Shown: one piece after another, positions 12,403-47,800 of the stretch | Layout: every line of letters starts with the position of its first letter | Position numbering within the stretch: the first letter of the stretch is position 1 | From: a virus | Taxonomy: Duplodnaviria > Caudoviricetes | Virus record (IMG/VR): IMGVR_UViG_3300044259_000026 | Coordinates: 1 to 64,000 of that record | Length of the DNA stretch: 64,000 nt | Strand: one strand, 5' to 3' | Made by a program: the position numbers and the translations under genes | The notes under the pieces: generated by a model | The model's input: the letters and a program-made list of their open reading frames with translations, nothing else | Told to the model about the DNA's origin: nothing | Database searches by the model: none

Positions 12403-14244
12403 TTGCCAATGGCTACTCTGACTTGGCGTAACGTGGACGCACCCACCATCAATGCTGCTGCTGGTGTGCGGGACGCTACTGCCCTGTTCGACAACGGACT
12501 CAACCGGATCAGTGAAGCACTCTCCGGTTTCCGTGCTGAACAACAACGCGGAGCCAACCAGCAAGTAATGCTGAATGCTCTGCGGTTTACCGACCCTAAG
12601 CAGTATCAGGAAGCTTTGGCTTCTGGTGCTATTACTGGGGGTGTCGATCCAACGGCTATTGATGCCCGGACTTTGGCTGCTCTTGGTTCCCGAACCAGCG
12701 ACCTTCAGAGCCAGCGGGCAAACAACCAACGGTTCGATACTAACCAGTACACCTTTGATCGTACCCGACAATTGGATACGGCAACGGACGCTGCTCGCCC
12801 TGCTGCTGCTCGGCAGTTTGGGATCTCCGATCCTGCACTGGCTGCTCTGCAACCTGAAGATCAATTGCGCTTTGCCCAAGGCTCTCGACAACTGGTCGGT
12901 GCGGATTTGGCCAACGAGTACAACCAGTTCCGCAACCTGACTACTAAACGGGATGACCGTGATCGTCAGGAAGGTTTGGCTTTGGCTGGTGAACTCAATG
13001 ACCAAGCAATTGATCCGGTCTCTGGTCGTGAAGTGGCTGCTACTGCTTCGTCCCCGGGTGCCCGAGCCATTGCTGACCAAGCCCTGTCTCGCCTGTTCCC
13101 CAATGCCTATGGTGCTGGCTCCGTGGCTGACACTACCTTTGGTTCCATGCTGCAAGCTGAGTCGTCTGGTCGCCAGTTCACCAAGGACGGCAAGACGGTC
13201 ACCAGCCCTAAGGGTGCTCTGGGCATTGCCCAGATCATGCCGAGTACTGGTCCGGAAGCGGCTGCTTTGGCCGGTCTGCCGTATGATGCCAACCGTTTGA
13301 AGAACGATGCTCAGTACAATGCCACCTTGGGCAAGGCCTACTTTGATAAGCAGATGGAGACCTTTGGCGGTGACCCTGCCAAGGCAGCTGCTGCCTACAA
13401 CGCAGGTCCGGGAGCTACCCAGAAAGCAATTGCCGAGGCTGCTGCTGAAGGTAATCCTGATGCCTGGCTGTCGAAACTGCCGAAGGAAACTCAGAACTAT
13501 GTACCGAAGGTGACTCGGGGTCAGGTGGATGCAGCGGCTGCTGATCTCGGTGTTCGTCAGATGCAGAACGTCGGTCAGCAAGGTGCTACTACTGACCTGT
13601 TCTCCAACCTCTCGAACACGGACACTGTAGGTACTGTCGCTGACACCCTGCTGGAGTCTGACTTCAAGGGTGCTGATCGTCAGTATGTGATCCGTGCCTT
13701 GAACGATGTGGTGAAGCGAGCCAACACCAGTCCAGCTCAGGCTGGTGCAATCCTTCGCCGTAACATCTCGGGGGCCAGTAACAACCCGTTCAGCGGTGAC
13801 TTCTCTGGGACCACGAACTTGGGTGGGAATATTGGTTTCCGTGACCAAGGTGTGGAAGGGGATATCCGGGCACAGCAAACTGGTATCAACATCGACCAAG
13901 CACTGACCAATCAGAATGCTGGACGTATTGCTGCTAGCCTGAGTTCGGCCTATGAGAAAGCTCAGCAAGCTGGCACCGAGTTGGCCCAGTTGGTTCAAGC
14001 CAGTCAGTCTCGACCTGAGTTGGCTCGCCAGATCCCACGTTATCAGGCTCGGGCACAGCGTGCTCAACAAGCACTCCAAGCTTTGACTGATGCTCAACGT
14101 ACCACTCCGGCTTACCGTGCTCAGCGTGAAGCGGCCAACGTTCCTCCGGAAGAAGTGAACCGGGAATTGAATAAACCGGAAGTCACTCCGCCAACTGCCC
14201 GAGTACTTACTCGACGCGATTTGGAATTCGGTCTGTACGACTAA
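12403..14244 (+). CDS. Virion structural protein with an SLT lytic transglycosylase domain
   Basis: LTWRNVDAP N-terminus; QAESSG, SPKGALGIAQIMP and AAYNAGPG are SLT motifs; no Cys. Confidence 0.88.
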   Translation: MPMATLTWRNVDAPTINAAAGVRDATALFDNGLNRISEALSGFRAEQQRGANQQVMLNALRFTDPKQYQEALASGAITGGVDPTAIDARTLAALGSRTSDLQSQRANNQRFDTNQYTFDRTRQLDTATDAARPAAARQFGISDPALAALQPEDQLRFAQGSRQLVGADLANEYNQFRNLTTKRDDRDRQEGLALAGELNDQAIDPVSGREVAATASSPGARAIADQALSRLFPNAYGAGSVADTTFGSMLQAESSGRQFTKDGKTVTSPKGALGIAQIMPSTGPEAAALAGLPYDANRLKNDAQYNATLGKAYFDKQMETFGGDPAKAAAAYNAGPGATQKAIAEAAAEGNPDAWLSKLPKETQNYVPKVTRGQVDAAAADLGVRQMQNVGQQGATTDLFSNLSNTDTVGTVADTLLESDFKGADRQYVIRALNDVVKRANTSPAQAGAILRRNISGASNNPFSGDFSGTTNLGGNIGFRDQGVEGDIRAQQTGINIDQALTNQNAGRIAASLSSAYEKAQQAGTELAQLVQASQSRPELARQIPRYQARAQRAQQALQALTDAQRTTPAYRAQREAANVPPEEVNRELNKPEVTPPTARVLTRRDLEFGLYD

Positions 14245-24729: not shown

Positions 24730-24806
24730 AGAGGAATCGCCAAGTTGGTTAAGGCACTGGATTTTGATTCCAGCATTCGAAGGTTCGAATCCTTCTTCCT
24801 CTTCCA
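24730..24806 (+). tRNA. tRNA-Gln(UUG)
   Basis: Acceptor AGAGGAA/TTCCTCT, anticodon arm CTGGA-TTTTGAT-TCCAG, T arm GAAGG-TTCGAAT-CCTTC, encoded CCA. Confidence 0.92.
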
Positions 24807-24812
24807 CTTTCT

Positions 24813-24887
24813 TGGTGAGTAGCAAAGCGGTAATGCACCGGACTGTTAATCCGGGGATCACAGGTTCGAATCCTGTCTCACCAGCCA
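24813..24887 (+). tRNA. tRNA-Asn(GUU)
   Basis: Acceptor TGGTGAG/CTCACCA, anticodon arm CCGGA-CTGTTAA-TCCGG, G73, CCA. Confidence 0.95.
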
Positions 24888-24891
24888 CTTT

Positions 24892-24968
24892 CAGGAATTA
24901 GCTCAGTTCGGTAGAGCGCGTCGTTTGGGACGATGAGGTCGTGGGTTCGATGCCTACATTCCTGACCA
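24892..24968 (+). tRNA. tRNA-Pro(UGG)
   Basis: Acceptor CAGGAAT/ATTCCTG, anticodon arm CGTCG-TTTGGGA-CGATG, A73, CCA. Confidence 0.95.
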
Positions 24969-45978: not shown

Positions 45979-46416
45979 TTAGGCCAAGAAGCTTTCGAGG
46001 CGCAGGCCGAACAGTTGAGCAACATCCTTCAGGATCTTCTCTTCCTTTTCGTCCATCTCACCGTCAGCCAGAGCGACAGTCAGGCCAGCCACGAGAACGT
46101 CTTCCATTTCGTGCTTGTCGCCTTGGCACTGGCCGATCTCACGCATGATCTGGCTACGACCAGCCAGCATACCTACGTCACGCAGCAGGCTGTCGAAGCG
46201 GGCGTAGGTGGCACCGACTTCAGCACCGTAGTTGGCCAGAGCCGGGGTGTTGTCCAGCAGCTTCTGGACCTTGGCGCGTTCAGCGTCCGAGGCGTCACCG
46301 TCGGCGTACATGACCAGAATGGCGATGCCTACGGTGGCTTCCATCAGGTCTTTCTTTTCGAACTTGGCGATGTCACGAGCGGCTGCTTTGGCTTTCTTTT
46401 TGAAGAAACCGAACAT
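45979..46416 (-). CDS. terB: TerB-family (tellurite resistance-like) protein
   Basis: Duplicated motif YADGDASDAER and LADGEMDEKEE; MFGFFKKK start. Confidence 0.88.
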   Translation of the reverse strand: MFGFFKKKAKAAARDIAKFEKKDLMEATVGIAILVMYADGDASDAERAKVQKLLDNTPALANYGAEVGATYARFDSLLRDVGMLAGRSQIMREIGQCQGDKHEMEDVLVAGLTVALADGEMDEKEEKILKDVAQLFGLRLESFLA

Positions 46417-46467
46417 TGGGTAGATCCTCTTTGATGACAGTGAAAAGGCACTGACTACCTATTTGAA

Positions 46468-46580
46468 TGGCGCCCGCAGAGTGGATTCGAACCACTGACC
46501 TTCAGCGACGGCGGATCTTTAACGGGAGCTACCCTAGATCCTGTGTGGCCGATGCTCTAACCGACTGAGCTACTTTGGGC
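46468..46580 (-). ncRNA. tRNA-like RNA with a 41-nt structured insert in place of the anticodon loop
   Basis: On -: GCCCAAAG-TA-GCTC AGTCGGTTA GAGC-A-TCGGC [41 nt] GCTGA-AGGTC-AGTGG TTCGAAT CCACT-CTGCGGGC-G-CCA. Confidence 0.8.
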
Positions 46581-46585
46581 ATAAA

Positions 46586-46666
46586 GCTGCATTGGTGGAA
46601 TCACTGAGTGATTGCCCCTAGGATTCCCGGCCTGTCTTCAGCCACCCAGTAATTCCCCAATGCAGC
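46586..46666 (-). ncRNA. Long hairpin (24-bp stem) immediately 5' of the tRNA-like RNA
   Basis: On -: GCTGCATTGG-GGAATTACTGGGTG pairs with CACTCAGTGATTCC-A-CCAATGCAGC (two G-U pairs, one bulged A); intergenic. Confidence 0.6.
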
Positions 46667-46701
46667 CTAGAAAACTAGGCTACATCTTGGTACTGCTAGC
46701 C

Positions 46702-46896
46702 TTAGGCCAGCATGGCACCGACTTCGGTCAGACGCGAGCTGATGGCTTGAATGCCCTCAGCGACCGGGATTTCTTCCCCGGAACGCATGGTGACGATGGT
46801 GTCACCGTCCGAGCCGATCACCGAGGAGATGTCGTCGACGTTGAACAGGGAGGATTTGCCGGTAGCGTTGTTCTTCAGTTTGATGAATTGCGACAT
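46702..46896 (-). CDS. Small protein, FlbD-like fold possible
   Basis: MSQFIKL...LFNVDDISSV...DTIVTMRSGEEIPVAE; GGAG RBS. Confidence 0.6.
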   Translation of the reverse strand: MSQFIKLKNNATGKSSLFNVDDISSVIGSDGDTIVTMRSGEEIPVAEGIQAISSRLTEVGAMLA

Positions 46897-46942
46897 TGTC
46901 TTACTCCAGTTGGTTAAGGGCGTCTTGCCCCCAGAAAAAGAT

Positions 46943-47185
46943 TTATGGGCAGCAGCGAGGACTGCCACCACAGTAGTACTTGTTCCCCTCGTAATTGACG
47001 GGGCCACGTCTCCCACAGCCACAGGTGGCTTGCACTTGGAAGATCCCATCTGCAAAGCAGATATCTTCCTTTCCACCCTCTGCACATGCTCCGCAGACCA
47101 ACTCATAAGCCGGATCGAGGATCATCCAGCTATTTGGTTCGCCGCAGCACATGCAGGTTGCTTGGATAGTTTGTTCAGTAGTCAC
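46943..47185 (-). CDS. Cys-rich putative Zn-binding protein
   Basis: GTG start coupled to the upstream gene; CMCC, CGAC, CGC, C..CC. Confidence 0.55.
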   Translation of the reverse strand: MTTEQTIQATCMCCGEPNSWMILDPAYELVCGACAEGGKEDICFADGIFQVQATCGCGRRGPVNYEGNKYYCGGSPRCCP

Positions 47186-47351
47186 TGCGCTTATCCCAGT
47201 GAGGGTTGTAGTGGACCATTGTGCTGGGAGAAGGTTGAACACCATTCTCCCGGCACAGTCTGGTCGCCTCGGCCATGGACCCTTTACGGGCAGCACAGCG
47301 GTAGACCCGCTGTTGCCAGTTCCGATTACTGATCCGTACCACTACGCTCAT
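47175..47351 (-). CDS. Small hypothetical protein (58 aa), not in the ORF track
   Basis: MSVVVRISNRNWQQRVYRC...DKRSDY; ATGA overlap with the dcd stop. Confidence 0.5.
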   Translation of the reverse strand: MSVVVRISNRNWQQRVYRCAARKGSMAEATRLCRENGVQPSPSTMVHYNPHWDKRSDY

Positions 47352-47800
47352 ACCGACTCCTTGGCCCGAACTGGTCGGTTTCCTTGGTTCTGGTATTTAC
47401 CATCGTAGCAAGCCTCTTCTGCGATTTTCTCGAAGATGACTTGGGCAATCCCACTACCGGCTTTGATCTTACGGGGCCAGAACCCCGAATAACGCAGCTC
47501 GATAGTCAGAAAGCCTTTCCACCCGGGCTCGATGTTGGTGGTCATGCTCGCGTCAATACCACGGCGTGCCCACGTCGATTTGTTCAACACCCGCCCCATC
47601 ACTGTGGTGGGCATATTGAATTCCTCAACGGAGGACGCCAACACGAAGCGACGACCCCAGAACATCCAGACATCTTGCTTGATGCGGATGTCATAGCCAC
47701 ACTCAGTCAGGCCCCACGAGGTGCCATGAGTGGTTTGTTTGGTTCTGACCATGTTCTTGATCGGGGCCAGCTTGAGCAGTCCCAGCTTATTGATGATCAT
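47348..47800 (-). CDS. dcd: dCTP deaminase (N4 gp26-like)
   Basis: GYDIR, NKSTWARRG, IEPGWKGFLTIEL, YDGKYQNQ. Confidence 0.92.
   Translation of the reverse strand: MIINKLGLLKLAPIKNMVRTKQTTHGTSWGLTECGYDIRIKQDVWMFWGRRFVLASSVEEFNMPTTVMGRVLNKSTWARRGIDASMTTNIEPGWKGFLTIELRYSGFWPRKIKAGSGIAQVIFEKIAEEACYDGKYQNQGNRPVRAKESV

Follow-up and report, generated by a model that had tools for sequence, protein, structure and literature searches.

YrlA/Y RNA, mascRNA, the gammaherpesvirus TMERs and transfer-messenger RNA (tmRNA) are non-decoding mimics of transfer RNA (tRNA) which recruit RNase P, RNase Z, CCA-adding or modification enzymes. The element described here is a 113-nt tRNA-like gene at 46468-46580 (- strand) of a 64,000-nt stretch of DNA from a soil Pseudomonas phage (the window; positions 1 to 64,000 of IMG/VR record IMGVR_UViG_3300044259_000026, a 73.8-kb phage genome with terminal repeats). 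Its family falls among the tRNA-like non-coding RNAs, but there was no Rfam match at E<=1 to any of the families just named, and the sequence family and setting of the element differ from theirs. Closest among described RNAs are the polycistrons of irregular, allo- and selenocysteine (Sec)-like tRNAs of Mukai et al. 2017 (PMC5389517; PMC7609411), which resemble it in coming from soil and phage sequence, in having longer acceptors and in occurring in arrays; a role outside translation is suspected for them, and for some there is a link to toxin-antitoxin loci. These tRNAs have a 12-bp acceptor/T branch (8/4 or 9/3), a long variable arm and a true 7-nt anticodon loop, whereas the element has an 8/5 branch (13 bp), a 5-nt variable loop and a replaced arm, a separation which is made from the descriptions and not by sequence comparison. 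The T5 anti-PARIS tRNAs (PMC11464382, PMC12409363) are also phage-encoded and also differ from the host tRNAs in the anticodon arm, but they are decoding replacements with normal loops, while the family of the element cannot decode and could at most be a decoy. Identical topology, ie a structured RNA behind a closing helix in a tRNA body, is found in the engineered tRNA scaffold of Ponchon and Dardel (PMC3753655). That scaffold is man-made and uses host tRNA processing to obtain defined ends and stability. To our knowledge a natural counterpart with exchangeable arms has not been described, and no description of the element's family was found in the searchable literature.

The cloverleaf core, U8, A14, G18G19, TTCGAAT, AGGTC and NCCA of a canonical class I tRNA (RF00005) are all in the element, which on the - strand reads GCCCAAAG-TA-GCTC-AGTCGGTTA-GAGC-A-TCGGC-(41 nt)-GCTGA-AGGTC-AGTGG-TTCGAAT-CCACT-CTGCGGGC-G-CCA. 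The 5' strand of the acceptor (GCCCAAAG, 8 nt, 46573-46580) is partnered by CTGCGGGC at 46472-46479, and U8-A9 leads into the D arm (GCTC-AGTCGGTTA-GAGC, with G18G19, 46554-46570). In place of the 17-nt anticodon arm there is a 51-nt arm at 46502-46552, closed by the pairing of TCGGC (46548-46552) with GCTGA (46502-46506) around a 41-nt insert. The variable loop AGGTC (46497-46501), the T arm AGTGG-TTCGAAT-CCACT (46480-46496) and the discriminator G with an encoded CCA (46468-46471) complete the gene. The original prediction, which had been read from the letters of the window, listed these features and every detail of its list is correct, including a nested 6-bp plus 3-bp stem in the insert: both GGATCT/AGATCC and GGG/CCC were recovered by RNAfold, and the hairpin GGATCT-A-GGG-TAGCT-CCC-GTTAA-AGATCC (46513-46541) is in the minimum free energy and the centroid folds. 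The stability of the fold is ordinary when compared with shuffled sequence (z -1.17).

When the whole window was compared with all Rfam families, a check which the original prediction had proposed, RF00005 matched the element from end to end (model positions 1-71) at 41.2 bits and E 2.6e-5. The gathering cut-off of that family is 29 bits, and this is a tRNA match well beyond chance; the alignment locates an insertion of about 40 nt in the anticodon loop. ARAGORN, also proposed, served in one of its modes only: with default settings it missed the element and reported just the three normal tRNAs of the window, but in intron mode it detected the element and drew an 8-bp acceptor stem. The three real tRNAs (Gln, Asn and Pro) are at 24730-24968 on the + strand, far from the element, as had been noted.

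A blastn search with the 113 nt showed that other N4-like phages of Pseudomonas have a 3' half near-identical to that of the element, which none of their records annotates. Its sequence places the element in a small family of these phages (Schitoviridae) that has no annotation; it is not a singleton. The seven full homologues are those of the window, Meara, Littlefix, 98PfluR60PP, CRC2 and two metagenome contigs found by pattern scan (L026 and L027), to which one variant contig from sequencing run X4 is added; Meara, Littlefix and 98PfluR60PP are cultured phages. Few members came out of scans with the 3' half, namely L023 and Littlefix (IMG/VR) and L026 and L027 (metagenomes). In IMG/VR a pattern of the 5' half matched Littlefix and otherwise only stretches inside coding sequence, by chance, and a scan with the 3' flank motif gave a single chance match, in L010. 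An IMG/VR search anchored on TerB found six loci, most of them without the family, and the AF-like phages had unrelated leaders.

The seven homologues and the X4 contig have the common core GCYCAMAG-TA-D arm-R26, variable loop, AGTGG-TTCGAAT-CCACT-CTGNGGGC-N. Pairwise core identity among the seven is 83-100%. The T arm is invariant at 17/17 nt in all of them, the 4-bp D stem is 100% paired, and the variable loop is AGGTC in six and AGAC in Meara. Identity to the window is 90-97% for the core halves, compared to 70-86% for the canonical tRNAs of the same phages and 65-78% for the coding flanks. Core substitutions are found only at D-loop positions 16/17/20, at N26, at the discriminator and at acceptor pairs 5/6, or else preserve a pair (C to U, with a G.U pair retained). 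The alignment shows the 8-bp acceptor, D arm, variable loop and T arm, which together form a predicted complete tRNA top half and elbow, to be near invariant. The pattern is not the one expected of a decaying pseudogene: random decay of the whole gene was not seen among the seven homologues, in which change is confined to the arm. The original prediction had named absence of homologues with a conserved or covarying scaffold among the grounds for giving it up; a conserved scaffold was found, with covariation in the stem from which the arm rises. In a close relative from run X3 the whole element, including the 51-nt arm, is unchanged except for G73 to A, and the discriminator is A in the near-identical X3 and X4 relatives, in Meara and in L026. 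An exact match to the variable loop together with the T-arm loop and its 5' strand occurs in many ordinary tRNAs of bacteria (Val, Met, Ile and Arg), and phage tRNA-Met genes have about 82% identity to the whole core. In bacterial genomes a 22-mer of the T arm turned up in ordinary tRNAs for Val, Met, Ile and Arg from many phyla, so this arm is generic and does not indicate which host tRNA might be mimicked.

The anticodon arm behaves quite differently from the core. Its length across the family is 13, 16, 18, 21, 28, 51 or 52 nt. The window arm has 51 nt; that of Meara has 28 nt (ACCCC-18 nt-GGGGU), that of Littlefix 13 nt (CUC-UUAGCC-GAG-A, ie 3 bp and a 6-nt loop), that of CRC2 16 nt (CCCAU-UUAGGA-AUGGG), that of L026 21 nt (a perfect 9-bp hairpin with a GAU loop) and that of the X4 contig 18 nt (ACGCCCGUAGUGGGUGAU, a 5-bp hairpin), while 98PfluR60PP and L027 share an arm of 52 nt (50/52 identical). 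With the exception of the last pair the arms cannot be aligned, their identity in forced global alignments being 23-56%, and Littlefix and 98PfluR60PP have arms of 13 and 52 nt in cores which are 100% identical. Every arm begins and ends in a helix. All five pairs of this closing helix change on both sides while remaining 100% paired (alignment A2); the covariation score was reached by 0/500 shuffles, and controls in which the strands were slid gave 23-51% pairing. From this covariation helix 27-31/39-43 is selected, and its cargo is not. The closing helix presumably stacks on the D stem. Two public contigs from the metagenome of run X4 make the exchange visible: one has the 51-nt arm, and in the other 18 nt stand in place of exactly 46502-46552 between flanks about 95% identical. 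The 51-nt arm of the former has a single substitution, which breaks a pair. The comparison thus shows the predicted anticodon arm to be a freely exchanged hairpin module of 13-52 nt on which the sole demand is an initial helix, and the 41-nt insert, far from being a conserved module, belongs to one of at least seven interchangeable arms. Four simple arms have UAG at their apex, in the loops UAGCU (46527-46531 in the window), GUAGU (X4), UUAGGA (CRC2) and UUAGCC (Littlefix). UAG is present somewhere in 7/8 arm variants; it may be a remnant of duplication of the D-arm sequence GUAGCUC, or a recognition motif.

The original prediction had suggested that the insert may come from an internal duplication. 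The likeness is real, though its support is modest: the insert aligns with the D-arm region of the element with a local score of 17 (p ~0.011 by shuffling), and holds GTAGCTC---CCGTTAAAG-ATCCGCC, which aligns with element positions 8-34. The Littlefix arm and the Meara D arm share CTTAGCCG. To judge from these sequences, unequal recombination among tRNA-like units is one apparent source of the arms, and recombination within the conserved halves would explain the exact boundaries of the swaps. In L023 (- strand, 1540-1720) a tRNA-like unit that carries about 85 inserted nt ends in the 3' half of the family; it is followed by CAAAA and by an orphan 5' half of the family (GCCAAAGTAGCTCAGCTGGTAGAGCA) with no T arm behind it, an arrangement which is either a recombination scar or a permuted form.

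The acceptor has eight positions, not the seven of a canonical tRNA, and in the window pairs 5 and 6 are A.C and A.G. Pairs 1-4, 7 and 8 are invariant or pair-preserving in the seven homologues, whereas 5 and 6 are mostly mismatched (A6.G in 6/7 members; A5 opposite C, A or U). The two-pair mismatch noted at first is therefore present in the window but is not a fixed feature, since the CRC2 acceptor is fully paired through two substitutions and that of L027 has one mismatch. The eighth pair is G-C in 7/7 members, giving an 8/5, 13-bp acceptor/T branch in place of the 7-bp stem and 12-bp branch of a tRNA. Behind this pair come a single unpaired base (A or G) and CCA, ACC(C), CCC or CTT. A reading as the G-1:C73 pair of tRNA-His was ruled out, as there is an extra nucleotide ahead of the CCA. 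The 8-bp acceptor stem of bacterial tRNA-Sec lowers affinity for EF-Tu about 100-fold (PMC7609411). The lengthened acceptor of tRNA-Sec and the allo-tRNAs is shared by the element; their long variable arm, 6-bp D stem and defined anticodon (UCA for Sec) are not. No tmRNA was found in the window by ARAGORN, nor any match to RF00023.

We tentatively regard the element as a functional gene for a non-decoding tRNA-core RNA which may act in trans as a decoy for a host defence, a proposal in which our confidence is somewhat less than even. Because the body is kept nearly letter for letter while the arm differs, the RNA is probably a non-decoding look-alike and not a broken or intron-bearing tRNA. 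The core of the original view, of a functional tRNA mimic with an intact elbow and no part in decoding, is much better supported with the conserved scaffold and the covarying arm base; the roles which that view put forward, a decoy for anticodon nucleases or an RNase P/CCA tag, are candidates. The transcript would be cut by host RNase P at G1, with maturation finished by 3' trimming and CCA repair, and a stable L-shaped RNA would accumulate. The acceptor/T stack of 13 bp, which resembles that of tRNA-Sec, and the lack of an anticodon loop would exclude the RNA from EF-Tu and the ribosome. It would then act through its top half and elbow by occupying a protein which recognises the tRNA body, most likely a tRNA-targeting defence nuclease or toxin of the host for which the RNA would be an uncleavable or harmless decoy, and the rapid turnover of the arm could stem either from an arms race or from a loosened constraint where the nuclease cuts. 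The AriB nuclease of PARIS cuts the anticodon arm at positions 40/41 (PMC12409363), bacterial Schlafen nucleases also cut that arm (PMC13056530), and phages answer such enzymes with variant tRNAs (PMC12409363, PMC11464382, PMC13056530). The decoy is placed first because several defences cut the anticodon arm, which is precisely the part turning over here. Research on immunity directed at tRNA (PARIS, PrrC/RloC, retrons, Schlafens, VapC and MenT-type toxins) is expanding fast, and the phage answers known to us are replacement tRNAs with their decoding intact. If the proposal is true, a conserved non-decoding body with an acceptor disfavoured by EF-Tu and an exchanged arm would be a distinct strategy relying only on RNA, either as decoy or as natural scaffold.

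Several results weigh against this proposal. No defence system or binding partner is linked to the element, and the search for sequencing runs listed no RNA run. The contigs obtained gave DNA variants only. A CCA is encoded in only 3/7 members, the others ending in ACTT, AACC or ACCC. At the syntenic position Zuri, Holyagarpour, Ebordelon and L007 have other T-arm-bearing units instead, and the terB relatives L012 and L017 have no RNA at all upstream of terB, from which it follows that the element is dispensable. The high core identity across genera could be due in part to recent horizontal spread of a cassette and not to long-term selection, and, as the family is small, the statistics rest on few independent lineages.

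That the element is instead a decoding tRNA from which the insert is removed to leave a normal anticodon loop is very improbable. The insertion does lie in the anticodon loop, where tRNA introns are found, and in 98PfluR60PP and L027 ARAGORN excises 33 nt at the canonical 37/38 position and leaves a Thr(GGU)-like loop. Nevertheless the 5-bp stem and 7-nt loop with U33 and a purine at 37 are found in no member of the family: the loop of the window arm is 41 nt, those of the homologues are 6, 5, 3, 18 and 42 nt, and CRC2, Littlefix, L026 and the swapped X4 form, which have no intron to lose, still lack a 7-nt loop. No choice of excision within the TCGGC/GCTGA stem of the window gives a 7-nt loop with U33. 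Intron mode assigned Ala(agc), Tyr(ata), Thr(ggt) and Arg(gcg) to four of the arm forms, a 2-nt anticodon to CRC2 and none to Littlefix, and several of these solutions need non-canonical intron positions. As the isotypes differ and the members without insert have no 7-nt loop, the family has no conserved decoding identity, and an ordinary intron is unlikely because no excision restores a consistent anticodon loop. Group I is the only type of bacterial tRNA intron known to us. Such introns exceed about 200 nt and have a P1-P9 core matching Intron_gpI, and the 41-nt insert, which is far too short, has none of these features. No intron or ribozyme family of Rfam matched the insert at E<=1, and at this threshold the only match in 46300-46750 other than tRNA was a weak one to mir-33 on the opposite strand; a small self-cleaving ribozyme in the insert was ruled out on the same grounds. 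A decaying, functionless pseudo-tRNA, formerly of Met, Ile or Val type and broken by unequal recombination of tandem units, would account for the partial repeat of the 5' half within the insert, for the orphan 5' half right behind a complete unit in L023, for the two acceptor mismatches, for the absence of the element from some terB relatives and for a fold no stabler than shuffled sequence. Decay, however, would strike the core as well. Here conservation of the core exceeds that of the functional tRNAs in the same phages, its substitutions keep clear of every tertiary and paired position, and the closing helix is kept in every arm variant, so that we think this explanation quite unlikely.

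A second group of explanations accepts that the RNA is functional and differs from the decoy in what the function would be. The element could be a cis-acting signal for RNase P and 3'-end punctuation, and for stability, in the transcript of a middle operon, the arm being irrelevant; in a variant of this idea it would release neighbouring structured RNAs and set the 5' end of the downstream mRNA. The element is in a co-oriented operon, 51 nt before terB; relatives have arrays of units with an acceptor-like closing helix, N-CC-N and a TTTTAT-type spacer; the arm is unconstrained past its first helix; and RNase P requires only the acceptor/T stack and elbow. We nonetheless hold this unlikely, since the Littlefix and 98PfluR60PP unit ends a tRNA cluster facing a convergent virion RNA polymerase (vRNAP) gene with no downstream mRNA, the neighbouring units bear acceptor-like ends of their own, and such near-perfect conservation of the D arm, variable loop and 8-bp acceptor would not obviously be required. 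Were the role confined to RNA processing, the family would be a natural experiment on the parts of a tRNA needed for maturation. If on the other hand the arm were the effector (an aptamer, protein-binding hairpin or antisense loop) and the core served for processing and nuclease resistance, the element would be a natural tRNA scaffold, with the architecture of the engineered one in which foreign RNA replaces the anticodon arm (PMC3753655). This explanation gains from the 52-nt arm, which is kept in 98PfluR60PP and L027 although the surrounding spacers differ wholly, and in which one of the two changes is G.U to G-C in the closing helix; from the 51-nt arm, unchanged in the X3 relative; and from the UAG shared by the four apical loops. 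It loses by the minimal arms of Littlefix and L026, by the resemblance of the window and Littlefix arms to debris of D-arm duplication, by the pair broken by the sole substitution in the window-type arm of X4, and by the lack of significant complementarity to the phage genome: one 12-mer complement of the arm was found in the window, with 0.3 expected. We judge the scaffold improbable, to about the same degree as the pseudo-tRNA. The 12-mer, CGGGAGCTACCC at 13409-13420 (+), complements the apical hairpin of the insert and is probably a coincidence. Between the decoy and these explanations in our estimate is a composite, possible but doubtful, in which the family would be a modular RNA platform for counter-defence, with a host-matured 8/5 core barred from translation and arms swapped by recombination. 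That such a platform would be a decoy or inhibitor of nucleases or toxins which cut the anticodon arm or bind the tRNA body, and one type of unit within larger arrays, is doubtful to a similar extent.

Among cultured phages the nearest to this one are Zuri, Holyagarpour and Ebordelon, Schitoviridae of P. putida whose DNA identity to it reaches only about 70%. The element is intergenic within a row of co-oriented genes, in the order dCTP deaminase (47348-47800), a 134-aa open reading frame (46702-47106), about 285 nt of structured RNA and terB (45979-46416, - strand; Pfam TerB 1.7e-14). A riboswitch or leader of terB was ruled out, as the homologues adjoin other genes or none; in Meara the family member is beside different genes, and in Littlefix it occupies another locus, at the end of the tRNA cluster mentioned above. 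At the syntenic site Zuri and Holyagarpour have different T-arm-bearing cassettes between near-identical flanks, which makes the locus a hot spot of cassette turnover.

Upstream of the element (46586-46683, - strand) a 10-bp hairpin with a TTTT loop is followed in the predicted fold by a long hairpin with the base GCATTGG/CCAATGC. The latter is of about 24 bp and stops 5 nt before G1, and its base recurs in Zuri, Ebordelon, Meara and L027 with wholly different yet complementary interiors. The base motif is present in three copies (CCAATGCA / TGCATTGG / CCAATGCA), so two competing folds are available. In LUZ7, GC-rich hairpins that lie about 15 bp ahead of a starting G serve as middle promoters (PMC9163698), and by analogy the first hairpin could be a promoter element. 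On the 3' side the conserved flank ATAGGTAGTCAGTGCCTTTTCACTGTCA (46435-46462, - strand) has a small hairpin ahead of the terB ribosome-binding site. This hairpin, of 5 bp and within the sequence ATAGGTRGTCASTGCCTT..., adjoins the ribosome-binding site of whichever gene comes next, terB or another, and its stem covaries (CAGTG/CACTG in the window, CACTG/CAGTG in Zuri, AACTG/CAGTT in Meara and GACTG/CAGTC in L027).

In relatives the family member is found within arrays of structured units, each with an acceptor-like helix, N-CC-N and a TTTTAT-type spacer. These irregular tRNA-like arrays of Schitoviridae are unannotated and escape standard tRNA finders. The units include real tRNAs, long hairpins with two T-arm-like hairpins, a second tRNA match and a further conserved RNA of the form GGCUGAUGAGG...CCGCAGCGUUUCARRGKGUGGCC. 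This last, at L018:1050-1140, L020:1237-1340, L021:1397-1487 and L027 (-) 46-173, is closed by a stem of 8-9 bp and continues with GGCUGAUGAGG, a variable hairpin and CCGCAGCGUUUCARRGKGUGGCC ... GGACAAYYUGACA up to an N-CC-N end; it is absent from the window and has no Rfam match at E<=1. Long hairpins or cassettes with two T-arm-like hairpins (eg GGUGCGAGUCC and GGUUCGAGUCC) are at L026:6077-6230, L007:1290-1420, L002:2325-2400 and L008:1325-1400, the same locus in different phages, and are missed by the tRNA model. The loci of Zuri, Holyagarpour, Ebordelon and L007 likewise gave no match to RF00005, though T-arm-like hairpins are visible in them.

In the syntenic unit of Zuri (L001:2429-2528) CCA comes immediately after an acceptor-like stem, AGTCGGTA/TACCGGCT. 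The unit also contains the T arm GTGG-TTCGACT-CCAC and the nested hairpin CCTC-T-GGCGT-AGGCC-ACGCC-TATT-GAGG, which has the same build as the window insert; a five-way junction is predicted. In Holyagarpour an unrelated cassette of about 170 nt replaces this unit between identical flanks. CRC2 has a second irregular tRNA match (L021:1311-1386, 35 bits) with a 6-nt anticodon-arm loop, CGCAGU, and the occurrence of two tRNA-like genes with 6-nt loops in this phage argues against sequencing error. The second tRNA match of Littlefix (L018:1243-1376, 48 bits) has an 8-bp acceptor, GGGTGGTT/AACCACCC, and a 70-nt insertion with inverted repeats AAAGATC...GATCTTT at its ends and a direct repeat AGAGCCA flanking it, which from its sequence looks like a small insertion with target duplication.

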